A DNA stretch of 64,000 bases from a bacterium (GTDB lineage: Bacteria > Planctomycetota > Planctomycetia > Isosphaerales > Isosphaeraceae): positions 16,745 to 80,744 of the forward strand of contig WGMM01000029.1 of the NCBI GenBank assembly GCA_016125085.1, written 5' to 3'. Numbering within the stretch: position 1 is the first letter of the stretch; each line of letters opens with the position of its first letter. The translations under genes and the position numbers were made by a program. This document shows, one piece after another, positions 9,001 to 42,058 of the stretch. A model generated the notes under the pieces. The model saw nothing but the letters and a program-made list of their open reading frames with translations, made no database searches and was not told the origin of the DNA.

Positions 9001-12000
9001 TGTTCGCATTTTGCTGGCTGCCGGCGGAGACCGTGAGGGTGAAGCCCTCGCTCTCGAAGGCGCCGATGTCGACGCCACCCACCCGGCTTACCCCGCGCTC
9101 GTCGGTCGCGAGAACGCCCGCGACGCTGGTTCCGGCATCGATCGCCGGACTTCCGGGCAGAAGAGCCAGGGTCTGATTCGGCCCGCCGTAGTCGCCGAGG
9201 GGGACTAGCATCGGGTTCAACGGCGCGGCCTTGCTGCCTGTCAAGTCGGTCGTGGTCCAACCCGTTTTGTAGCCTACGGTCGCAATGCCGATAATGTTGT
9301 AACCGCCGCTGAGGGGGTAGCCCCTCACATCGGATTCGGCATTGGGTCTGGTGTTGGTGGTGATGTTGCCCGCGACGATCGTGTTGGTCAGCGTCATGCC
9401 GGTGGACGACGTCGGCGAGAAACTGGTGGACAGGCCGCCGCCCCCTCGACCGGCGGTGTTTCCGCTGACGGTGCAATTGGTCAGCGTGGCCTGGCCGGAG
9501 TCGGCGATGGCGCCGCCGTACCTGCCGGCGGTGTTGCCGACGACGGTGCAGTTGGTCAGGGTGGCTCTTGACCCGCCACTGTTCCAAACCCCGCCGCCGA
9601 CGCCGGAGGCCGTGTTTCCGCTGACGGTGCAGTCGGTCAGCGTGAGCGTGCCCTGGTTGTAAACGCCGCCGCCACTTACGCTGGTGTTGCCGCCCGAGAT
9701 GGTCAGCCCCGAGATCGACGCCGTAACGTTCGAGTCGACGTGGAACACTCGGCTCAACCCGCCGCCGCTGATCGTCAAGCCCGCCGCGGGGCCCGTGATC
9801 GTCATCGTCTCGGTCGTGTTGCTCAACTCCAGCTCGGCCCCGCTCAAGGTGATCGTCTGGTGTGTGCTGAAAACGGCCGGATCGAAAGTGATGCCTGAGA
9901 TGCCCGTGGAATCGAGGTCGAGTAAGGAGATGGCCTTACGCAGGCTCATGAGGCCCGAGGTCGGAGTGAGGGCGTCTTGCGTCGTATTCACGACGAGTTT
10001 TGTGAAGGGCGTGCCGGTATTGGTCAGAGCGAACGACACCGGGGGCGAACCCGTGAGTGATGCGACCACCGTGTAGCTGCCAAGGGCGTTGTTGGGCGCG
10101 GCAGTGACGGAAGCGAGGCCCCCCGAGATCACCGCCGAGGAGGACGAAAGATACGCCCTGGCGCCATCCACCGGGTTGACCACGAAGTCGACGGCGGCGC
10201 CGTCGACCGGCTCGACCGGGTCGTTGGCCGTCAACGTCAGGCCGAGGGCGTTGGCGAACGACTTGCCGATGTCCGCACTCTGCGGGCTGCTACCCGCAAC
10301 CGCCTTGAGAATGAACCCCTGGCTTTCGAAGGCACCGATGTCGACGGCCCCGAACCTGCGCTTCCCGCGCTCGTCGGTGGTGAGCACGCCCGCGCCGCTG
10401 GTTCCGGCGTCGATCGCCGGGCTCCCCGGCAGAAGCGCGACCGTCTGTCCCGTGGCGCCGTAGGTGCCCAGTACGGGATTGCCGCTGGCATCGGTCGGGA
10501 AGATCGAGGACAGCGAGCGTCCGACGAGATTTCCGTCGACACCGTCCGTCAGCCCGCCGGCCGTGTTCCCATCGCCGATCAGGTTGAAGGTGCCGTTGAC
10601 AGAGCCGCCGATGTCCGTGGGATCGCTCAAGCCGTAGCCGAACACGAAGTTGCCGGCGACGATGGTGTTGGTCAGCGTCGCCGTCCCGGAGTTGAACACG
10701 CCGCCGCCGAGGCTGCTTTCGCGGGCGTTACTGCCGACGAAGGTGCAGTTGGTCAGCGTGACCGTCCCTGAGTTGAACAGGCCGCCGCCGGAAAGGGCGG
10801 AGTTGCCGCTGACGGTGCAGTTGGTCAGCGCGAGCGTGCCCTGGTTGAGCAGGCCACCGCCGTCGTAATTCCCCGAATAGTTCTGCGGCGACCAGCCGTT
10901 GTAACCGGCCGAGGCGCCGCCGTAGCCCGCGTTGCCGCCGGTGATGCTCAGCCCCGAGATGGACGCCTTGACGTTCGGGTCGATCTGGAAGACACGACTC
11001 TTCCCGTCGGCGTTGACCGTGACACCCCCCGCCGGGCCCGTGATCGTCGTGGTCCCCGTCGTGTCGCTCAACTCCAGCAGTGTGCCGCCCAGGGTGATCC
11101 TCTGCGAAGTGGCGAAGACGACCGGGTCGAACGTGATCGACTGGTCCCCCTCCAGGAGGTTGGCCAGGTTGACCGCCTGGCGCAGACTGAGCCGGCCGGC
11201 GGCCGCCGGGCCGTCGACGGTCGTGTTGACGACGAGAAGTGAGCTTTGCCTCTGAAAGGCACCGATGTCGATCGGGGCGTCCAACGCGAAGCCGCGCTGA
11301 TCGGCCGTGACGCCGCTGGCGGTTCCCTTGCCGATGGCCGGACTGCCGGGCAAGAGCGGCATGGTCAGGGTCGGTCCGCCGTACGACCCCAGAACGCCGA
11401 GTCCGGGGTTTGCGACGCCGACGATGTTGCCGTTGGTCCCGTTGATTAGACCTCCCGAGCCCCCGGTACCGATCAGGTTGTGAGAACCGGTCACATTGCC
11501 CGAAATGTCGCTGGTATTGCCGGCGACGATCGAGTTGGTCAGCGTGGTCGTGCCGCCAGGGCTATATAAGCCGGCACCGGTCGCCCCGGAGTTGCCACTG
11601 AACGTGCAATTGACCAGCGTGGCATTGCCCGAGCTGTTGAAAAGGCCGCTGCCCCTGGATGGGACGACGCCGGTCGAGGGGGTTCCCTGAACGAAAAGTT
11701 CGCGGTAACCGACGTACGCATTCTGGGGCAAAGGGAAGGAGAACCGGATCGCGGCCACATGACTGGCGAGAATCCCTGTACTGCTGGTGAGAAACGCGGC
11801 CGTATCGCTGGGACTCCCGTCGAACGTGGGGGTGGATACGTCACTCAGCACCTGGAACCTGGTCGGGTCGAGCACCGTGGAATAGAGCACGGTGTAATCT
11901 TGCCGGCTGTGGCCCGAATCGCGCCAACCGGCATAGGTGTTGATGTTCGTAATGTCGTAACCCAGCGGGTTGGTGCCCGTGTCCAGGTTGTACGTGATTT

Positions 12001-15547: not shown

Positions 15548-18500
15548 ATGAACGAACTCGACCTGTTCGCTGCCGCGATTGCGATCGACGACTCTCGCGA
15601 GCGTGATGCCCTGCTGGATCGTGAATGTGCCGGCCGCCCGGAGCTGCGCCTGCGGCTCGACGAGCTGCTGGTCGAGCACTTCCGAATCGACCCGCGATCC
15701 GATCGACCGGGCTGCGAGCCGACCACGTCTCTTTCCGCAACGGAGGCTGGAGATATGGGCACCCAGATCCGATGGAAGCCGGCCGACGACGTGGAGATGG
15801 ACAAGACCTTCATCGATCGGCCGCAGGATTATGCCGAGCCGGGGATCTTCGGCCCGGGCGATCGCGACAAGAACGAGCAGGCCGGCACCGTCATCGCCGG
15901 CAAGTACACGCTGGCCGAAGTCATCGGCGAGGGCGGCATGGGCTCCGTCTGGCGGGCCCGGCAGACCGAGCCGGTCAAGCGGTTCGTCGCGGTCAAGCTG
16001 ATCAAGGCCGGCATGGACTCCCGGCAGGTCCTGGCCCGGTTCGAGGCCGAACGCCAGGCCCTCGCGATGATGGATCACCCCAACATCGCCAAGGTGCTCG
16101 ACGGGGGGCTGCACCAGGGCCGGCCCTACTTCGTGATGGAGCTGGTCAAGGGCATCCCGATCACCGATTATTGCGATCGGAAACGGCTCACCCCGAAGGA
16201 GCGGCTCGATCTTTTCGTCCCGGTCTGCCAGGCGATCCAGCATGCCCACCAGAAGGGGATCATCCACCGCGACATCAAGCCCTCCAACGTGCTGATCGCA
16301 CTTTACGACGACCGGCCCGTGGTGAAGGTGATCGACTTCGGCGTGGCCAAGGCGACCGGCGGAGCGCTCACCGATCAGACCCTCGATACCGGCTTCGGCG
16401 GCGTGGTCGGCACGCCCCAGTACATGAGCCCCGAGCAGGCGACGTTCAACAATCTGGACGTCGACACTCGCAGTGACGTCTATGCCCTGGGCGTTCTGCT
16501 CTACGAGCTGCTGACCGGCTCACCGCCGTTTTCCAGGGACGAACTGGAGAAACGCGGCGTCCTGGAGATGCTGCGGGTGGTGCGTGAGGAGGAGCCGCCC
16601 CGGCCGAGCACGAAGCTCTCGACGGCCGATGCGCTGCCGTCGCTTTCGGCCAACCGGAGCACCGTGCCTTCGAAGCTGGCGGGCCTGCTGCGGAACGAAC
16701 TCGACTGGATCGTGATGAAGGCGCTGGAGAAGGACCGGTCACGGCGTTACGAGACGGCCAACGGGTTCGCGGCCGACGTGCAGCGATATCTGGCGGGCGA
16801 GGCGGTTCTGGCGCACCCGCCGAGCACTGGCTACCGGCTGCGGAAGTTCGCGCGAAAGCACCGGGTGGGGCTGACGACGACGGCGGCGCTGGCGCTGCTG
16901 CTGGTGGCGGGGGTGGCCGCCAGCACCTGGCAGGCGGTGCGCGCCACGCGGGCGGAGGCGGCTGCGCGGCTCGCGGAAGGCGTCGCGGTGCGGGCGCAGC
17001 GGGCCGAAGCCGAGCGAGCCGAGGGCGAGCGGCTCGCCAGGCTCGACGCGCAGGCCAGGAAGGCCGAGGCCGAGCGAGCGCAGATTCGCGCCGAGGCGGG
17101 CGAGGCACTTGCCGGCGAGCGGCTCGTCCAGGTCGAGGCCGAGAAGAAGAAGGCCGAGGAGGAGCAGCAGATCGCCCAGGCGGTGAAGGTCTTTCTGCTA
17201 AATAAGCTGCTGGCCCAGACCGACGTGAGTCAGCAGGCCGACGCGCTGCTGAAGGCGGGCGGCACGGCGACCGAGGCGCGGCCGAACCCGACCATCCGCG
17301 AGCTTCTCGACCGGGCCGCCAGGGAGCTGGCGCCGGACCGGATTGAGCAGAGCTTCCCGGGGCAACCTCGGGTCCAGTCCGAGATTCTCGCCACGGTGGG
17401 CAACGCCTATCGTGGCATCGGCGAATTCCCGGCGGCGATCGAATTCCTGAAACGGTCCGAAGCCTTGTGCCGGCAACACGGCGGCCCCGAGCACCCCAGT
17501 ACGCTCAACAGAATGCACCTTCTTGCCCTCGCGTATGAAGCCGCCGGCAAGCCGATGCTGGCCGTGCCGCTCTTCGAGGAAACCCTGAGGATTCGAAGGG
17601 CCACGCTCGGCCCCGAGCACCAAGACACGCTCAATACGATGAGTTCGCTCGCCGGGGCGTATAGTTCCGCCGGGGAGGCTGACCTGGCCGTGTCGCTCCA
17701 CGAGGAGACCCTGAGGATTCGAAGGGCCACGCTCGGCCCCGAGCACCACGACACCATCGCCGGAATGAGCAACCTCGCCCTGGCATACCGCCACGCCGGG
17801 AAGGTGGACCTGGCCGTGCCGCTCGCCACAGAGGCGTTGAGACTGACGAAGGCCAAGCTTGGCCCCGACCACCCCGATACGCTCAGCGGCATGAGCAATC
17901 TCGGCATGCTGTATAAGGTCGCCGGGAAGCCGGGCCTGGCACTGCCGCTCTACGAGGAGGCGTTGAGGCGACAGAAGGCGAAGCTCGGCCCCGAGAATCC
18001 CAGCACCCTGACCACGATGAACAGCCTCGCCGCGGCGTATCTTGACGCCGGGAAGGCGGACCTGGGGCTGCCGCTCATGGAGGAGACCGTGAAGCTCAGG
18101 CGGGCCACGCTCGGCCCCGAGCATCCCAGGACTCTCGACAGCATGGGCAACCTTGCCCTGGCGTATAACATGGCGGGGAAGGCGGACCTGGCCATGCCGC
18201 TCATCGAGGAGACCCTGAAGCTCCGGCGTGCCACACTCGGCCCCGAGCATCCCAGGACACTCGACGGCATGAGGATCCTGGCCGGCACGTATAACGCCGC
18301 CGGGAAGGCGGACCTTGCCGTGCCGCTCTACGAGGAAACGCTGAGGCGACAGCAGGCGAAGCTCGGCCCCGAGCACCCCGACACGCTCACCACGATGGCC
18401 AGCCTCGCCGTGGCGCATCTCGCCACCGGGAGGGCGGACCTGGGCCTGCCGATCTTCGAGGAGACCCTGAAGCTCAACAAGTCAAGGCTTGGTGCCGAGA

Positions 18501-34850: not shown

Positions 34851-37800
34851 TCATTCGCCGGCGGCGGCCGTCGTCGTTTCCGGTCCGGTGGCCGAAATGC
34901 GAACGGAGACTGCCGATTGCAGAATCAATTGCAACTGGCTGTCGCCGGCCGGGGCCCGGTCGGTCGCCATCGTTACCACGTTCCAGCCCTTCTTCAGCGC
35001 CAGAGGCAGCGGGTTTTCGTTCAGGCGGCCGTTGGGGCGGGTCTGCGGCGAAGCGACCTTTTTGCCGTTCAGATACAGTCGGGTCGGCCCGGAATGGCCG
35101 GAACGCAGGGCGACGGTCTGATCGACCGGCGATTCGACCCAGAACGCGGCATAAGCCCGGCCCGGGTTGGTGCCGAACTGGCCCCGGAGGTTCATCATGC
35201 CCGAACTGGCGATGTCGAGGGCGACCCAGCCGATCGTTTGCCCGTCCTGACCGACGAGCGGCTTGCGCACGTCCGGCGCAGCAAGAGAGACGCTCTTGCC
35301 GTCCTCTTCGACCGGAAGCGGGCCCACAGCCATCAGGCGGGTGACACGCGTGGCCGTCTTCAGCGATTCCTGGGCCGGCTTGTCTCGCAGGAACGCCAGC
35401 AGGTCTGCAAGTTCCTTCTGCGAAAGATCCGCGACCAGGCCGACGGGCATCAGGCTCACGTTATCCCGCTGCTGCTCTTCGATTTCGGCCACGGGCACGC
35501 GGATTTCCTGGCCCGAGGCTTCGCGCAGGACAAGCGTTTCGTTGTCCTGGCTGACCTTCACGCCCGAAAGCACGCGGCCATTGTTCAGGGCCACCTTATA
35601 GGCTTCGTAGCCTTCTTTCAGCTCTTTGGAAGGTTCCAGGATCGATTCGATCAGCTTTTCCACCGAATAACTCTGGAAGGCCCCGGTGAGTGCCGGGCCC
35701 ACATTGCCGCCGATGCTCTCCATCTTGTGGCACGTGGTGCAGCGGGCTCCGCCTTCTTTCAGAAACACGCCCATACCGGCCCAGGGATCGGCCTTGCCGA
35801 CTTCCGCCGCAAGGGCGATCCGGTCAATCGACTTGATCGATTCCTCGATTCCCTTTTCGATCCGGGCCTGAACGGCCTGGTGCTCGGGCGTGGCGAATTT
35901 CCGCAAGGCCGCGAGAACCGTCGGCGCGTCACCTGATTTCAACTTGCCTTCGACGAACAGGTTGCCCAGCCGCAGGGCCGTTTTCGGCTGCTCGCCGAGT
36001 AGCGCCAGAGCGTCGGCCCGCACTTCTTCGCTGGGGCTCGTCAGGGCCTTTTCGAGGTAAGGAATCGCACGGTCCCGGTTCGATTCGGCCAGGCCACGCA
36101 GAACCGCCACGGACCATGCCGTGTCCGTTCCCGAAGCGTCCGCCGCTTTGGCGATCAGGTCGAAGGCACCCGCACCGGTCGTCCGCAGCGCTCGCAGCAC
36201 CGCAAGTCGTTCAGCGGCGGATCGGTTGCCGTCGGCCACGCGGTCGCCCAGCTTTTCGGCCAGCTTGGGGAACCTGCTGTCGGCGGCGTATTCGGTCGCG
36301 GCGACACGCACGGCTTCATCTTCTTCGTCCAGCAACCGGGCGACCAGCTCATGAGCCGGAATGCCCGCCAGGCGCACGTTCTGAAGCGTCGCCAGCTCGA
36401 TGCGGGCGTCCAGCTCAGGATGTGCCTGCACGAACTGCACCAGCTTCACCGTGGCCACGGGGATGTTCAGCGGAATGTCCTTGAACATTCGCACGAAGAC
36501 GAGGCGATCGTCGGCCGACAGGTTCGGCAGAACGACCAGGTCGGGCAGGCGCCGGGCGGCTGGTTCCGTCCGCATGGCCGAAAACACTCCCACTGCATTG
36601 CGGCGACGGCTGTCAGAGCCCAGGCGGATCGTCTGCGCCACAACTTCCACAGCCGTTTCGCCAAGCCGTTCGATGGCACGAATGAAAGCGTCACGAGTGG
36701 CTACATCAGCCGAAGCGTTATCGTGCAGCCAGTTCAGCATCGCTTCGCCGGCCCGGGCCGGGTTGTCCGTCGCGTGCCGGCCGATCGCCAGGGCCAGTTC
36801 ACGCAAGACCTGACCATTGGTTTCGCTGGCCAGATGCTGCTCCAGATGAGGCACGAATTCAGGGCGGCTTGCCGTGGGTTCCCACGAGATTGCCTGTGCC
36901 GCCAGCCGGCGTACCTGAAATTCCGGATCGCTCCAGGCCGCTACGAGCCGGCTTTCCACTTCGCCGTTCCAGAGCTGACGAATGCCCTGAAGACCCAGGC
37001 AGCGGGCCCGCACAGGGGCCTGGCCGTCATTGAGCAGGGCCATCAGCGCGGCGCGAGACTTCTCGCCACGCTCCACCAGCTCTCGCAGGGCACGGTCGGC
37101 CTGCTGATAATCCAGGCCTCGCAGCATGCCGATCAGCTCGGCTTCTGACGCTTTCTGGACGTGCGTCCAGTCGTTGCGGGGCCGTACCGGGCGTGCCGGT
37201 TCGGTCGAAGTGCCGCCCCAGGTCAGCTTGTAGAGGCGGCCGAATTTGCCGTCGCCCCAAAGCCGTCCGGCACCGCCGGAATTCGAACGCCAGTCGAGCA
37301 CGTAGATCGCACCGTCCGGGCCGACCACGGTCTGGCACGGGCGAAACAGGTCGTCGTCGGCCGTCATCAGCGTCAGTTCCCGGCGCAGCACGTTCGCGCC
37401 GCCGGCTGGCTCCACCTCATAGGCACGCACGAGTTTGCGGAAGACGTCGGGATAGATCAGCAGGTCGCGAAACCGGTCCGGAAACGCCGTGCCGTGATAG
37501 ACGGCCAGGCCCGCCGGCGCGCCACGGCCGGTTTTGGCCACGATCGGCAGCTTGCCAGGCAGTTCGCCGTCGACGGCGCCCCGGTCGAAGTCAGGCCGGC
37601 AGCAGAACGCGCCCGGCAGCAGCCGCCAGCCGTAGTCGCCTTCTTCCACAGGATTGATCAGCCGCACGCCCTGGAATTTCGAGCCGTCTTCGTTGTCGTT
37701 GTCCACGATGAAGGCATCGAACCGGCTATTGAAAGCCAGGTCGCGATAAGGATTACGGAAGCCGAGGGCGAACAGGTTCATGCGTGTGCCGTCGGGCCGG

Positions 37801-38516
37801 CCGCGGAAAATGCCGCCACAGCGCGAGACTTCCACCCGCGAGCCATCAGCCCCGACGACGTGGTTGTCGTTATCGCCGGCGGTCAGGTAGAACCAGCCGT
37901 CGGTGCCCAGAGTCATGCCCGAAAGCCAGTGGTGGTAGAACCCGCAGAAGCCGTCGGCGATGATCGTACGCGTTTCGAAGCGGCCGTCGCCGTCTTCGTC
38001 CGACCATTTTTCCAGCCGCCCGACGCAGGTCAGGTACAGGGCACCCTTCCAGGGGAAGATCGATGAGGGCATCTCGGCACCGTCGACGACCACCTCGGAG
38101 TGTTCGTAAATGCCGTCTTTGTCACGGTCTTCGAGCCGCTTGACGATGTCCATCGTCGCCTTGCGCCGGCGAGTGATCCGCTGCGTGCCGCCTTCGGGCA
38201 GCTTGATCGTGTCGAATGTGTCGTACATCCGGTCGGCCTGGCGCCATTCGGCGACGTACAGCCGCCCCTGGTCGTCGAACGCCATGGCGGTCGGGTCGAC
38301 GATCGCCGGTTCGGCGGCCACGATCTGCACCTTGAAGCCCGGAACGGCGTAATGGCCCTTGAGCCGGGGGTCCTGATCGCCCAGCTCCACCAGGCCTTCT
38401 CGACCTTCGGCGGGGCCGACCTGGGCGATCGCGTGCGTGCTGAACAAGGTAGAAACGAGGCCGATGGCGACGACGAAGCGACGTCCGGCCACTCTGGCGA
38501 AGCGTTGGAGAATCAT
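34851..38516 (-). CDS. PVC-type membrane-bound-dehydrogenase-domain / HEAT-repeat / CxxCH heme-binding protein
   Basis: The signal-like N-terminus is MILQRFARVAGRRFVVAIGLVSTLFSTHAIAQ. It also has PGFKVQIVAAEPAIVDPTAMAFDDQGRLYVAE (TIGR02604-like) and GGARCTTCHKMESIGGNVGPALTG (TIGR02603-like heme c). The track ORF extends to GTG 38705. Confidence 0.8.
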   Translation of the reverse strand: MILQRFARVAGRRFVVAIGLVSTLFSTHAIAQVGPAEGREGLVELGDQDPRLKGHYAVPGFKVQIVAAEPAIVDPTAMAFDDQGRLYVAEWRQADRMYDTFDTIKLPEGGTQRITRRRKATMDIVKRLEDRDKDGIYEHSEVVVDGAEMPSSIFPWKGALYLTCVGRLEKWSDEDGDGRFETRTIIADGFCGFYHHWLSGMTLGTDGWFYLTAGDNDNHVVGADGSRVEVSRCGGIFRGRPDGTRMNLFALGFRNPYRDLAFNSRFDAFIVDNDNEDGSKFQGVRLINPVEEGDYGWRLLPGAFCCRPDFDRGAVDGELPGKLPIVAKTGRGAPAGLAVYHGTAFPDRFRDLLIYPDVFRKLVRAYEVEPAGGANVLRRELTLMTADDDLFRPCQTVVGPDGAIYVLDWRSNSGGAGRLWGDGKFGRLYKLTWGGTSTEPARPVRPRNDWTHVQKASEAELIGMLRGLDYQQADRALRELVERGEKSRAALMALLNDGQAPVRARCLGLQGIRQLWNGEVESRLVAAWSDPEFQVRRLAAQAISWEPTASRPEFVPHLEQHLASETNGQVLRELALAIGRHATDNPARAGEAMLNWLHDNASADVATRDAFIRAIERLGETAVEVVAQTIRLGSDSRRRNAVGVFSAMRTEPAARRLPDLVVLPNLSADDRLVFVRMFKDIPLNIPVATVKLVQFVQAHPELDARIELATLQNVRLAGIPAHELVARLLDEEDEAVRVAATEYAADSRFPKLAEKLGDRVADGNRSAAERLAVLRALRTTGAGAFDLIAKAADASGTDTAWSVAVLRGLAESNRDRAIPYLEKALTSPSEEVRADALALLGEQPKTALRLGNLFVEGKLKSGDAPTVLAALRKFATPEHQAVQARIEKGIEESIKSIDRIALAAEVGKADPWAGMGVFLKEGGARCTTCHKMESIGGNVGPALTGAFQSYSVEKLIESILEPSKELKEGYEAYKVALNNGRVLSGVKVSQDNETLVLREASGQEIRVPVAEIEEQQRDNVSLMPVGLVADLSQKELADLLAFLRDKPAQESLKTATRVTRLMAVGPLPVEEDGKSVSLAAPDVRKPLVGQDGQTIGWVALDIASSGMMNLRGQFGTNPGRAYAAFWVESPVDQTVALRSGHSGPTRLYLNGKKVASPQTRPNGRLNENPLPLALKKGWNVVTMATDRAPAGDSQLQLILQSAVSVRISATGPETTTAAAGE

Positions 38517-38701
38517 TTTTGTGACGAGTCCTCGGGCATTTCGGGCGGGGGAATCCGCAGCGGGTATCCCGTTAAAGTAATCCGCGCGTGCCGCGATCGC
38601 AAGAGAATGCTGGTCAATGCCGAACGAAAAACGGCGACTCCCGGATGGGGTCGCCGCTCGATCGATATCGCTGCGTAGCCTGGAGAGTTCGCCTCTCCGA
38701 T

Positions 38702-39268
38702 TCACTTCACCCGTTCGAGATACTCGCCGGTGCGGGTGTCGACCTTCACCTTGTCGCCTACCTTCATGAACGGCGGCACCTGGATGACCAGGCCGTTCTC
38801 GCAGGTGGCTTCCTTGTACTGGTTCGTGGCCGTGGCGCCCTTGATTTCGGGCGGAGTGTCGGTGATCACGTATTCCATCGAAGCCGGAATTTCGACCGAG
38901 ACGGCCTTGTCGTCGATGTACTTCACCATCGTCTTCGTGTTCGGCAGCAGGAAGTTCAGCGAGGTGCCGAGAATGTCCGTATTCAGCGGGAACTGGTCGT
39001 ACGTTTCCATGTCCATGAAAACGTGTTCGTCGCCCTGGCTGTAAAGGTATTGGAATTCTTTGGTTTCGACGAACGGGACTTCCAGGGTGTCAGCCGAGCG
39101 GAACCGCTTTTCGATCGTCGATCCCGACTTCAGGTTCTTGAGTTTCGTCTGCACCATCGCGCGCAGGTTGCCGGGCGTGTGATGGAGAAAGTCGACGACG
39201 ACGAAATTCACGCCTTCGATCGTAACGACCTGTCCTCGTCTGATGTCGTTGGCCTTGATCTGTGCCAT
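38702..39268 (-). CDS. efp: translation elongation factor P
   Basis: Full-length EF-P pattern: MAQIKANDIRRGQVV...TPGNLRAMVQTKLKNL...VDTRTGEYLERVK. Confidence 0.95.
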   Translation of the reverse strand: MAQIKANDIRRGQVVTIEGVNFVVVDFLHHTPGNLRAMVQTKLKNLKSGSTIEKRFRSADTLEVPFVETKEFQYLYSQGDEHVFMDMETYDQFPLNTDILGTSLNFLLPNTKTMVKYIDDKAVSVEIPASMEYVITDTPPEIKGATATNQYKEATCENGLVIQVPPFMKVGDKVKVDTRTGEYLERVK

Positions 39269-39455
39269 GGTTCCTGTCCGTCAAGGGAATCGGCGGGCAC
39301 GGCCCCGTTCTTGTGTGGCCTTGACCTTGCCGAGCGTTGTTCCATCCCCGGCCGGTTGCCGGGGCGATCTGATCCGAAGACCGATATCATAACGCGCATC
39401 GCTCGAATTCTCTACCCACAAGCCGGATCGGTCCGTTCGATCGCCGAATGGCTTC

Positions 39456-39974
39456 ATGCTTTCGCTGCGGCACCAGGGCTTCATTGAAGTTGACTTGATG
39501 GATTTTCGATCTATACTTACAGATGTGGTCGGCGATGAAATGCCACCCGGCACGTACAAGGGGCGATTCGTGAAGGCCCGGTTTTCCCGCGACATCCTGA
39601 AGAGCATCGGCCTGGCGGCCTGGTTCGCCCTGTCGAGCGTTCTATCCGTGTCCGCGCAGGATTTCTGCCGCCCGGATCATGACTGTTGCCAGGTCGAAAC
39701 CAAAACCTGCTGCACGCCCGCGATTCCCGCCCCGACGCCGCATTCGGGCCCCGATTGTACCTGCAATCACGCCGGTCCGTCGCAAACCGCCCGCCCTGCA
39801 AGCTCGGCGAGCGTACGTGCGGAACAGCGTAAAGAGCGGTCGATCTCCAGCGAGGTCTCTGAATATCCGCCTTACACGCCGAAGATCGCGAATTCGACAA
39901 GTTCCTCTTCTCCCGCGACTTCGGTTCCGGTCTCCGTACCCGTATTTCGCCTGACGTCCCGCTGGCGCTGTTGA
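39456..39974 (+). CDS. secreted Cys-rich hypothetical protein (start probably ATG 39540)
   Basis: From 39540 the translation is MPPGTYKGRFVKARFSRDILKSIGLAAWFALSSVLSVSAQ / DFCRPDHDCCQVETKTCCTPAIPAPTPHSGPDCTCNH.... The tail is Ser/Pro-rich. Confidence 0.4.
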   Translation: MLSLRHQGFIEVDLMDFRSILTDVVGDEMPPGTYKGRFVKARFSRDILKSIGLAAWFALSSVLSVSAQDFCRPDHDCCQVETKTCCTPAIPAPTPHSGPDCTCNHAGPSQTARPASSASVRAEQRKERSISSEVSEYPPYTPKIANSTSSSSPATSVPVSVPVFRLTSRWRC

Positions 39975-40196
39975 ATCGCTATTTTCCGATTTCGAAAATT
40001 CCAGGCTGAGTCATGTCGCTATGCCCTGAATCATGGGCCGCGTGAATCGTCTGGATAAGTCAAGGTGCAATTCGCTCCGGCCACTTTCGATATGTCGTCG
40101 AACGAATCGTCAGCCGCGCTGGCGAGCCACTGGGCCGTGCGCGAACTTTCCGAATCGATTTCGAATGGTCCGATGCAATTCGAATGCATCGACATG

Positions 40197-40202
40197 AAGG
40201 AG
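40197..40202 (+). promoter_or_regulatory. Shine-Dalgarno (AAGGAG) for the CDS starting at 40211
   Basis: gAAGGAGaatttgcgATG, with an 8-nt spacing. Confidence 0.5.
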
Positions 40203-40210
40203 AATTTGCG

Positions 40211-40630
40211 ATGAGTATGATCGAAACACGTCGTCGGATGATGTTCGGCGTTCTGAGTGCCCTGGTTTCGGGCCTCGCTTTGTCGTCCATGGCCACGGCC
40301 GCCGACACCAAAGCCGCCTGCTGCAAGGACGGCAAGTGCTGTGGTGAGAAGGCCTGCACGGGCGACTGCTGCAAGTCAGGCAAGTGCACGCACGATTGCT
40401 GCAAGAAGGCTGAAGGCGCGGCCTGCTGCAAGGACGGCAAGTGCTGTGGTGAGAAGGCCTGCACGGGCGACTGCTGCAAGTCAGGCAAGTGCACGCACGA
40501 TTGCTGCAAGAAGACCGAAGGCGCGGCCTGCTGTAAGGACGGCAAGTGCTGCGGTGAGAAGACCTGCACGGGCGACTGCTGCAAGTCGGGCAAGTGCACG
40601 CACGATTGCTGCAAGAAAAAGGCCGCCTGA
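40211..40630 (+). CDS. exported Cys-rich tandem-repeat protein (metallothionein-like)
   Basis: The signal peptide is MSMIETRRRMMFGVLSALVSGLALSSMATA, with an RR motif. It is followed by 3 x ACCKDGKCCGEKACTGDCCKSGKCTHDCCKKAEGA, giving 30 Cys in a mature part of about 109 residues. Confidence 0.75.
   Translation: MSMIETRRRMMFGVLSALVSGLALSSMATAADTKAACCKDGKCCGEKACTGDCCKSGKCTHDCCKKAEGAACCKDGKCCGEKACTGDCCKSGKCTHDCCKKTEGAACCKDGKCCGEKTCTGDCCKSGKCTHDCCKKKAA
40316..40627 (+). repeat. three tandem 105-nt (35-codon) near-identical repeats
   Basis: gcctgctgcaaggacgg recurs at 40316 and 40421, and as gcctgctgtaaggacgg at 40526. Only a handful of substitutions separate the copies. Confidence 0.9.
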
Positions 40631-40796
40631 GTCGGTCGAGATCCTGCATAGGATTCGATCGGATTCTACGGCGTCAATGAAATGACCTGGTCGGTTTCGC
40701 CTGAAAAACAGGCGAAGCCGGCCTTTCGATTTCGGGAACTTCGAAGGCTCTTGGCGAAGCCGGGAAGCAATGAGACTGCAATTCGACAGCCGGTCG

Positions 40797-41246
40797 TCAG
40801 AATTCGATCGATCCGGCATAGAACGAAGCGATCGATTCCGCGTTCGCTGAGGCGGCTGGCGGCGGCGGGGCCAGATGCCGAAATGGCCAGCGGTCGACAT
40901 TTCGTAGAATCGAATAGCCGATAAGGATCGCCAGAACCGTCCAGGCGATCCATGGGCGCCTGAAGCGGTCAGGCCTTGCGGCCATGATGACCAGGACCGG
41001 AATCGCCATGACCGCGAGCGCGTTGTATTTCAGAGCCGTACCGATTCGGCCATTGAGCAGATGATGCGATGCCCGGGTCGACCCGCAGCCGGAACAATGA
41101 AGCCCGGTGAATTGCCGGATCGGGCAGCCGGGGAAGATCCGGGATCGTTCCGGATCGTTCCGCGCCAGCACCATCGCGCCGAACAGGATGGCAAAAGCGG
41201 CCAGACCGTTTCGGGCAGACCGCTTCCACGTCATGCCGTGGTTCAT
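40797..41246 (-). CDS. DUF2752 domain membrane protein
   Basis: FPGCPIRQFTGLHCSGCGSTRASHHLLNGRIGTALKYNALAV matches the DUF2752 CP..tG..CpGCG.tRA pattern. ATG 41246 overlaps the upstream TGA (ATGA). Confidence 0.75.
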   Translation of the reverse strand: MNHGMTWKRSARNGLAAFAILFGAMVLARNDPERSRIFPGCPIRQFTGLHCSGCGSTRASHHLLNGRIGTALKYNALAVMAIPVLVIMAARPDRFRRPWIAWTVLAILIGYSILRNVDRWPFRHLAPPPPAASANAESIASFYAGSIEF

Positions 41247-41590
41247 TGCACCTTCTGGGATTCTTGCAGGAAGGCGAAAGCGATGTTCAGGAAGATGACG
41301 ATGAATCCGAGGATGAAACTGATCACGATCCATTTGAAGGCGTTATCGGACGCCTCCTGAGCCCCCTCGATATCGCCCGCCAACGCCTTGTTGTTCACCC
41401 TGGTGGCATAGACGAGTGCGACGATGCCGAACGGAACGCAGCAAAACAGGGTGACCAGAACCGCCTGGGTCATATAGTTGGGAATCGTGACGGCCGGGCC
41501 TCCCAGGCCCGAGGGCCTGATCGCTTCGCCGCAGCCCACGCAAAATTTGGCTTGATCGGAGTTCTCGTATCCGCATTTTCGACAAAACAT
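41243..41590 (-). CDS. CD225/dispanin-family membrane protein with N-terminal zinc ribbon
   Basis: MFCRKCGYENSDQAKFCVGCG is followed by NYMTQAVLVTLFCCVPFGIVALVYATRVNNKALAGDIEGAQEAS. Confidence 0.75.
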   Translation of the reverse strand: MFCRKCGYENSDQAKFCVGCGEAIRPSGLGGPAVTIPNYMTQAVLVTLFCCVPFGIVALVYATRVNNKALAGDIEGAQEASDNAFKWIVISFILGFIVIFLNIAFAFLQESQKVQ

Positions 41591-41611
41591 GGTGGAAGCC
41601 TTCTTTCTTAC

Positions 41612-42058
41612 TCAGCTGCGATTTCGGAGCAGTTCCAGAACGAGACCCAGGATGAGGAAGCCGAATAGAACCGTCCCGAACATCCCCATCACCAGACCGA
41701 AGATCGCCCGGCCCATCCCGTGCTTTTCCGGGTTTCGGCGAATGTCACGAATCGCGAGAATGCCTGTGATCAGAGCCGCGGGTGCCGGCAGCAGCAGAAT
41801 GGAGACGAGTCCGAGGTATCCGGACACGATCGCCAGCCCGGACCGGCCGACCGGCAGCAGCAGCCGCATGGCGGCGGAATCGTCACCCGTCGAAATGACA
41901 GGTCGCGCGGTATCGTGCAGGTTGTACCCGCAAGCTGTACATCGATAGTTATTCTCGAGGTTCTTGACTCCGCACTTTTCGCAATAAATCGTCGGTGCCG
42001 CTGGTTCCGGGCTGAGTATTTCGTCGCTTTCCGCCTGATCCGTGATTTCTTCGCTCAT
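41612..42058 (-). CDS. DUF4190 domain membrane protein with zinc ribbon
   Basis: YCEKCGVKN...YRCTACGYN is followed by GLAIVSGYLGLVSILLLPAPAALITGILAIRDIRRNPEKHGMGRAIFGLVMG. Confidence 0.7.
   Translation of the reverse strand: MSEEITDQAESDEILSPEPAAPTIYCEKCGVKNLENNYRCTACGYNLHDTARPVISTGDDSAAMRLLLPVGRSGLAIVSGYLGLVSILLLPAPAALITGILAIRDIRRNPEKHGMGRAIFGLVMGMFGTVLFGFLILGLVLELLRNRS

Follow-up and report, generated by a model that had tools for sequence, protein, structure and literature searches.

The DNA analyzed here, which we call the window, is a 64,000-nucleotide stretch (positions 16,745 to 80,744 of the forward strand) of contig WGMM01000029.1 in GenBank assembly GCA_016125085.1, from a planctomycete of the family Isosphaeraceae. 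On its plus strand lies a short gene for a predicted exported protein made of three tandem, cysteine-rich units, preceded by a second small gene that encodes a Cys/His protein. Neither the repeat protein nor the gene pair has been described previously. New in this analysis are the constancy of the upstream partner, the link through a shared heptad to exported proteins with a heavy-metal-associated (HMA) domain, and the presence of either twin-arginine (RR)-type or Sec-type signals among the relatives. The repeat gene comprises the following features:

40211–40630, plus strand: coding sequence of the Cys-rich repeat protein (139 codons; the coordinates include the stop codon)
40211–40300, plus strand: signal peptide MSMIETRRRMMFGVLSALVSGLALSSMATA (30 residues; RR motif; A-x-A cleavage site)
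40316–40420, plus strand: repeat unit 1 (35 amino acids, with 10 Cys and 1 His)
40421–40525, plus strand: repeat unit 2, which has the same 90-nt core as unit 1
40526–40630, plus strand: repeat unit 3, the terminal unit, which ends in KKKAA plus the stop codon

The signal peptide is followed by AADTKA and then by three 35-residue units, each composed of ACCKDGKCCGEKACTGDCCKSGKCTHDCCKK and a linker of 4–5 residues. Tandem Repeats Finder reported a 105-nt period over positions 40316–40617 (2.9 copies, 96% matches, 0 indels, score 562), and the mean column identity of the three aligned units is 95%. Translation, repeat detection and unit alignment agree with the first-pass annotation of this DNA, which had claimed three near-identical 35-residue units with 10 Cys each. 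The Tandem Repeats Finder output also includes a second, less pronounced period of 48 nt (64% matches), which corresponds to the internal half-units CCKDGKC and CCKSGKC. The degenerate pattern CCKxGKC occurs six times in the window, all six inside the repeat gene, and shuffled sequences gave an expectation of 0.

The mature protein (109 residues, 11.1 kDa, isoelectric point 8.4) contains 30 Cys, 23 Lys, 14 Gly, 12 Ala, 10 Asp, 9 Thr, 5 Glu, 3 Ser and 3 His, and no other residue type. It is therefore 27.5% Cys and 21% Lys, with no F, W, Y, I, L, V, M or P. The Cys residues of the mature part are spaced 0,4,0,4,3,0,4,3,0, with a 7-residue gap between units; both this spacing and the total of 30 Cys are exactly those given earlier. 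There are 12 CC doublets, together with C-x3-C and C-x4-C spacings, and neither C-x-C nor C-x-x-C occurs in the mature protein. A chain limited to C, K, G, A, D, T, E, S and H has no hydrophobic core and therefore cannot fold by itself; with this much Cys and no core residues, it must be disordered, locked by disulfides or organized by metal. AlphaFold2 models contained only short helices, with a predicted local distance difference test (pLDDT) score of 51.8 from a 3-row alignment and 52.1 from a 10-row alignment.

In the plus frame, the ratio of nonsynonymous to synonymous differences (pN/pS) is 0.11–0.33, at pS values of 0.33–0.71; against six orthologs it is 0.11–0.31, at pS values of 0.33–0.69. 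The repeat open reading frame (ORF) is a genuine gene under purifying selection. Two ORFs run antisense to it:

40060–40614, minus strand: antisense ORF, longer than the true gene
40110–40649, minus strand: antisense ORF, longer than the true gene

These encode 184 and 179 amino acids, and a caller that greedily maximizes length chooses one of them. Their length could be taken to mean that the repeat ORF is a by-product of a DNA tandem repeat, or that the real gene is an antisense ORF, as could the absence of the repeat protein from a protein collection that contains neighboring NCBI proteins. The substitution pattern refutes this idea, to which we assign a negligible probability: because changes concentrate at synonymous sites of the plus frame, the antisense ORFs are excluded. 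Moreover, the signal peptide, Shine-Dalgarno sequence and terminator are all conserved on the plus strand, and the protein sequence is kept across loci of 47–62% GC. The collection in question holds 15 billion proteins. Neither the exact repeat protein, whichever start codon is assumed, nor either antisense product is in it; it includes the adjacent DUF2752 protein (NCBI accession MBI1324784.1) and the product of the upstream partner gene ('hypothetical protein GC170_16575'). Since the repeat protein is missing from a collection that holds its neighbors, the gene may be unannotated in the source assembly.

A word-indexed search of 5.8 billion proteins identified two relatives, P0001 (3 units) and P0002 (2 units). 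An exhaustive profile search of 1.84 billion representatives produced 11 matches at E ≤ 0.001, of which nine are exported CC/K-rich relatives. P0008 and P0009 were rejected as false positives caused by compositional noise; P0011 is exported and Cys-rich but has a different Cys pattern, and was also counted as a false positive. A plasmid collection gave no match. The exported CC/K-rich repeat family is very rare. The homolog search that the first-pass annotation had proposed for the 35-residue unit led to these nine relatives and to no described family, and the view that the repeat is not a recognized one is upheld by the databases: there is no Pfam family at E ≤ 10 and no NCBIfam model, sequence searches of the PDB gave only chance EGF-like matches (E ~0.2–0.5), and profile searches of the PDB gave nothing. 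Judged by its sequence, the repeat protein belongs to an undescribed family.

The number of units, which had been suggested as a quantity to compare between strains, varies from 1 to 5 among the relatives. P0004 is a one-unit protein of 66 amino acids. Scans of genomes and metagenomes added loci with three units (L012 and L017) and four units (L003, from Isosphaeraceae), as well as L010, in which five units begin with CCKDGKCC, two of them short and divergent and three canonical. L013–L015 form a sub-family with variant units, and the contigs of the distant relatives P0005, P0010 and P0012 are too short to reveal gene context. Units 3–5 of L010 are 98–99% identical to one another and 80–88% identical to units elsewhere; as had been suggested under the name of concerted evolution, the units are homogenized within each genome. 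The core of unit 3 in the window shares 98% identity with the terminal unit of L003, but only 94% with units 1 and 2 of its own gene. Internal homogenization combined with a distinct terminal unit is the pattern expected from unequal crossing-over among internal units.

One further relative stands apart. On L020 (3392–8366), a distant exported CC/K-rich protein with CCKEG/CCKDG repeats is encoded directly downstream of genes for a Crp/Fnr regulator, the iron-center repair protein RIC/ScdA and a quinol nitric oxide (NO) reductase, so that this one relative may have some connection with nitrosative stress.

All relatives begin with a signal peptide that ends in an A-x-A-like site, and export of the repeat protein is well supported as a prediction. 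The first-pass annotation had described the signal peptide as carrying a twin-arginine-like motif. The predicted signal peptide is supported, and its TRRRMMF fits the expression RR.[FGAVML][LITMVF], which we take to be a TatP-style motif for twin-arginine translocation (Tat); assignment to the Tat pathway is less secure, because no Tat-signal profile matched (the Pfam and NCBIfam scans returned no model at E ≤ 10) and close relatives have Sec-type signals. Short Tat-signal profiles often miss true cases. The RR pair is kept within the window lineage (TRRRMMF, TRRQMIF, SRRRMIF and TRRQMMF), and more distant members have SRRDLL and LRRNFL. The hydrophobic (h-) region of the window signal reaches a maximum Kyte-Doolittle hydrophobicity of 2.07. 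Values for the RR-bearing window lineage and P0010 are 2.0–2.2, as opposed to 2.4–3.1 for relatives without RR; the RR-bearing P0005 (2.86) and P0003 (2.69) are exceptions to this trend. In P0004, L010, L012 and L017, the same mature units follow plain Sec-type signals without RR. Tat is therefore not obligatory for the family, and the window protein could be exported by either Tat or Sec.

The first-pass annotation dealt with the repeat gene only and overlooked a partner gene that is invariably linked to it upstream. This gene and the elements that flank the pair are as follows:

39490–39517, plus strand: candidate sigma-70-like promoter TTGACT-16-TATACT, upstream of the partner gene (consensus match only)
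39540–39974, plus strand: partner gene, encoding a small exported or anchored Cys/His protein, directly upstream of the repeat gene
40085–40103, no strand assigned: inverted repeat TTTCGA-N7-TCGAAC, a candidate operator, ca. 110 nt before the start codon of the repeat gene
40171–40191, plus strand: 5' leader hairpin CGATGCA-N7-TGCATCG (7 bp, 7-nt loop), directly upstream of the Shine-Dalgarno sequence
40197–40202, plus strand: Shine-Dalgarno sequence AAGGAG, 8 nt before the ATG
40689–40733, plus strand: intrinsic terminator, a 15-bp GC-rich hairpin followed by the T-rich tract TTTCGATTTC

The partner protein consists of an N-terminal hydrophobic segment, a C-xx-DH-x-CC-x5-6-CC motif and a C-x-C motif, a poorly conserved linker of ca. 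60 residues and a conserved C-terminal [FY]RLTxRWRC. It is 100% identical to the NCBI entry 'hypothetical protein GC170_16575 [bacterium]', and sequence and profile searches found no match to it in Pfam, NCBIfam or the PDB. Wherever a locus includes upstream DNA (13 of 13), the partner gene immediately precedes the CC-repeat gene, although some loci show only its 3' end, where the contig begins there. The loci that carry it, besides the window, are L001, L003–L005, L010 and L012–L017, and they include lineages with 47–52% GC, Sec-type signals or variant units. The window protein has the features by which we define the family, namely a signal peptide, A-x-D-x-K, at least one ACCKDGKCC...CCKSGKCTHDCCKK unit, and an upstream partner of the form C-xx-DH-x-CC...RWRC followed by the stop codon.

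The promoter candidate agrees with the consensus at 10 of 12 positions and is kept in L003 as TTGACC-16-TATACT (9251–9278); it may function as a promoter. Because this conserved site lies upstream of the pair and no terminator is predicted between the two genes, we infer that they probably form a single transcription unit. The 236-nt spacer that separates them contains both the inverted repeat and the leader hairpin. The inverted repeat is kept as GTTCGA-N6/7-TCGAAC in four related loci (L001, L002, L004 and L005), and its pattern has 2 matches in the window with at most one mismatch, compared with 0.21 expected; its RNA fold is unremarkable. Support for the leader hairpin is comparative, its folding energy not being exceptional (z -0.12): a consensus across 7 loci has two-sided compensatory changes in 4 of 8 pairs, with pairing maintained by two-sided substitutions in L001, L003 and L016. 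The Shine-Dalgarno sequence, which had also been picked out earlier, is conserved across related loci, with an invariant GGAG core and a conserved start codon in the seven close ones. The terminator begins ca. 60 nt after the stop codon, folds over 40689–40723 at -29.3 kcal/mol (z -5.7) and is kept in L003 at 10582–10615. An Rfam scan of 39300–40900 gave one sub-threshold chance match only.

In the best genomic relative, a contig of an uncultured Isosphaeraceae bacterium (Planctomycetota), the gene order is that of the window. The shared order begins with a 1,280-amino acid DUF7133/HEAT/cytochrome-c protein (minus strand), EF-P (minus), the small Cys protein (plus) and the CC-repeat gene (plus), and continues with a DUF2752 protein, a CD225 protein with a zinc ribbon, a DUF4190 protein with a zinc ribbon and an M28 peptidase, all on the minus strand. 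The three small membrane proteins that follow one another here (DUF2752, CD225 with zinc ribbon, and DUF4190 with zinc ribbon; 40797–42058, minus strand) are syntenic in L003. The large DUF7133/HEAT-repeat protein (34851–38705, minus strand), which has a C-terminal cytochrome-c (CxxCH) region and adjoins EF-P, is kept in L003 and L015. Farther out, the window encodes an Lhr-type helicase, a Ser/Thr kinase, a PP2C phosphatase, a PIG-L deacetylase and a molybdopterin oxidoreductase. Within ca. 15 kb of the repeat gene, the window contains no metal transporter, metal sensor, thiol-disulfide oxidoreductase or peptide maturase.

Identical units, short linkers with dibasic sites and a conserved small upstream protein without an assigned role are also what one might see in a multi-core precursor of secreted Cys-rich peptides (a ribosomally synthesized and post-translationally modified peptide, or RiPP, a bacteriocin or a signal) that is cleaved in its KK-AEGA linkers. 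Such a precursor is very improbable here, because no radical-SAM protein, LanB/C/M, YcaO, peptidase-ABC exporter or other maturase is encoded within ca. 15 kb, and because a classical signal peptide is atypical for RiPP precursors. The existence of a one-unit relative, and of tails fused to HMA domains, also speaks against it.

Those tails occur in Bacteroidota. In four metagenome loci (L018, L019, L021 and L022), the encoded protein begins with a signal peptide, continues with an HMA-type region that includes a GNCGMC loop and ends in tandem CCKDGKC heptads. In Pfam scans of three of the four, HMA scored 37.1 bits in L018 and 30.0 bits in L019 (gathering threshold 24.8), and L021 gave no HMA match. 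The HMA-tail family comprises 1704 clusters at E ≤ 1e-10, from Chitinophagaceae and related Bacteroidota. Among its best 120 matches, 80 have at least two CCK[DENG]G motifs, and CCKDGKC, with 172 occurrences, is the commonest tail heptad. Database names for these proteins include 'heavy-metal-associated domain-containing protein', 'cation transporter' and 'periplasmic mercuric ion binding protein' (e.g., Flavihumibacter rivuli KJS94_03030). The mature window protein aligns with the tail of an HMA protein at E = 7e-10 and 53% identity (BLASTP).

The HMA-tail genes belong to a module of Porin_10, DUF8199/HYC_CC_PP, the CC-tailed HMA protein and a second exported HMA protein, which ends with a TlpA/AhpC-TSA-like thioredoxin and an uncharacterized protein of 270–295 amino acids, in either order. 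It was seen in metagenome loci and in two cultured species, Flavihumibacter rivuli and Terrimonas alba, with Porin_10 present in L021 and in both genomes. Its spans are:

L018: 107–2284
L021: 5076–10359
L023: 7427–12536
L024: 7467–20537

After the module, the genome of Terrimonas alba encodes an AraC regulator, an HMA-MauE protein, another DUF8199 protein, an HMA-domain TonB-dependent receptor and an HMBD (heavy-metal-binding domain) P-type ATPase. We found no study in the literature of CCKDGKC tails, of the Bacteroidota module that contains them or of HYC_CC_PP. From these sequences, the CCKDGKC heptad is predicted to occur outside the cytoplasm, joined to a genuine soft-metal-binding domain, with a periplasmic thiol reductase next to it and metal-handling genes around it. 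The window protein would in effect be a tail-only version with a longer unit, and the presence of the heptad in exported HMA proteins of metal-related modules offers indirect, analogical support for metal binding.

We therefore favor, at a probability of roughly 55%, a reading in which the repeat protein would be a periplasmic thiolate-rich metal buffer or store whose capacity scales with the number of units. In this scheme, the 30 thiolates and 3 imidazoles of the mature protein would wrap thiophilic metal ions into periplasmic metal-thiolate clusters, whose negative charge the flanking Lys residues would offset, and the protein would act as a metal buffer or store. Cu(I) would be the likeliest metal, because of the HMA/CopZ-like partners and the all-thiolate ligand set; Zn, Cd or Hg would also be possible. 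By analogy with metallothioneins, each 35-residue unit, with its 10 Cys and 1 His, might hold ca. 3 divalent ions or ca. 6 Cu(I) ions. The number of units would determine the capacity, and unequal recombination would alter that number between lineages (1 to 5 units). The upstream Cys/His protein would be the functional partner, either loading and unloading metal or keeping the thiols reduced. A more elaborate and rather doubtful version supposes that the Tat signal works: the protein would fold around its metal-thiolate clusters before leaving the cytoplasm and so be exported pre-loaded, the partner would remove the metal or recycle the thiols, and capacity would be tuned by the number of units.

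Several observations weigh against a metal buffer or store. The first concern the compartment: the protein carries 30 thiols destined for an oxidizing periplasm, no reductase is encoded adjacent to it in the window, and 30 periplasmic thiols would tend to form disulfides unless kept reduced. Neither the window nor the syntenic L003 and L015 have a metal-homeostasis gene or a metal-sensing regulator within ca. 15 kb. Others concern the comparison with known proteins. No Pfam metallothionein model (including the SmtA/BmtA type) and no metallothionein structure matches the protein, which also lacks the C-x-C motif. The low-confidence AlphaFold2 models are compatible with disorder, disulfide-locking or metal organization; they prove none of these and are uninformative on the point. 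The remainder concern the Bacteroidota link. The HMA proteins are absent from the matches of the exhaustive profile search of 1.84 billion representatives, and the partner is not significantly similar to HYC_CC_PP/DUF8199 in a profile-profile comparison (probability 0.3%), so that their similar upstream positions are at most an analogy, homology not being supported. Because the link consists of a 7-residue motif in biased sequence and the HMA proteins were missed by the profile search, we do not infer common descent, and the sharing of CCKDGKC may be convergent.

The same observations on the compartment would suit a disulfide-rich structural protein, in which a Cys ladder or knot within or between molecules would create a rigid, protease-resistant component of the envelope or matrix with no role in metal binding. 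Planctomycete envelopes have been reported to be cystine-rich, and CC-rich disulfide ladders are found in granulins and in beetle antifreeze proteins. Export into an oxidizing compartment with no reductase encoded nearby and strict conservation of the Cys positions both agree with such a role. However, AlphaFold2 gave no confident disulfide-stabilized fold (pLDDT ~52), there is no sequence match to a solved Cys-rich fold, and Lys-flanked Cys without any hydrophobic residue is typical of metallothioneins. In Bacteroidota, the motif is attached to HMA domains and encoded beside a TlpA-like reductase, which argues for reduced thiols. On balance, we consider a structural role unlikely, albeit worth keeping in view.

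It is less probable still that the protein is a sacrificial thiol buffer, one that scavenges oxidants, NO or electrophiles, or binds metalloids such as As(III) and tellurite, instead of serving as a store of metal cations. Scavenging of radicals and NO is a further property of metallothioneins, and the L020 relative adjoins the quinol NO reductase, RIC/ScdA and Crp/Fnr genes. PmtA of Pseudomonas has likewise been linked to oxidative stress (PMC11237414). Yet the L020 protein is only remotely similar and has no partner gene, the window offers no stress-response context, and the HMA fusions point to metal cations.

If the buffer or store reading is right, a signal-bearing, core-less, metallothionein-like protein would represent a different solution to soft-metal buffering in the periplasm. 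A cytosolic location is described for bacterial metallothioneins and for most thiolate-rich metal stores, and the known exported store, Csp1, is a folded helical bundle. A question that follows is how 30 thiols stay reduced and become loaded outside the cytoplasm. Should Tat export a loaded protein, it would serve either to remove metal by export or to deliver a pre-filled periplasmic store, and together with the Bacteroidota HMA-CCKDGKC module it would suggest a widespread, unstudied system of periplasmic thiolate buffering. The CCKDGKC motif connects a rare planctomycete protein to a large uncharacterized set in Bacteroidota, so that one experiment on either would inform both. The case also illustrates that short, repetitive, Cys-rich ORFs can escape protein catalogs.

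Among known systems, the closest in composition are the metallothioneins, which are characterized by low molecular weight, very high Cys content, the absence of aromatics, and C-C, C-x-C and C-x-x-C motifs, and some of which, in eukaryotes, are built of tandemly duplicated Cys modules. In composition the window protein agrees, with its low mass, very high Cys content and lack of aromatic residues. With eukaryotic metallothioneins and with SmtA/BmtA, MymT and PmtA it shares small size, ca. 28% Cys, Lys beside Cys, CC doublets and modular duplication; it differs from them in its classical export signal, in the absence of C-x-C and in matching no metallothionein family or structure. The first-pass annotation had stated that bacterial metallothioneins are cytoplasmic, and metallothioneins are indeed described as cytosolic stores (PMC10155185), with the qualification that PmtA of Pseudomonas has been found on the cell surface, which it may reach by a non-classical route (PMC11237414). 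Our literature search turned up no account of a signal-peptide-bearing, exported metallothionein from bacteria, or of a periplasmic metallothionein.

Csp1 of Methylosinus trichosporium, a four-helix-bundle Cu(I) store that is predicted to be exported by Tat and lies outside the cytoplasm (PMC10155185), resembles the window protein in being exported, thiolate-rich and provided with an RR-type signal. What sets Csp1 apart is its fold, a four-helix bundle with Cys lining the core, and the two have no sequence similarity. The window protein has no hydrophobic residues with which to pack a bundle and yields no confident helical-bundle model; with no profile match either, the earlier view that it is unrelated to the Csp copper storage proteins is borne out.

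HMA metallochaperones of the MerP/CopZ type share with the window protein the use of thiolates to ligate soft metals and, in the case of MerP, the compartment, and an HMA domain of this type is the domain partner of the shared heptad in Bacteroidota. Each of their ferredoxin-like domains holds one metal by means of a single CxxC, whereas the window protein has neither an HMA domain nor a CxxC. The HMA-tail proteins come nearer: they, too, combine a signal peptide with tandem CCKDGKC-type heptads in which Lys, Asp and Gly abound, and the gene directly upstream of theirs codes for a small Cys protein with a hydrophobic N-terminus. In contrast to these proteins, the window protein has no HMA domain, and its 35-residue double-heptad unit includes extra CC pairs and a His; its locus has no adjacent thioredoxin, porin or second HMA gene, and its partner is not detectably related to HYC_CC_PP/DUF8199. 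By analogy of function, then, the repeat protein would most resemble a metallothionein or the tail of an exported metallochaperone.

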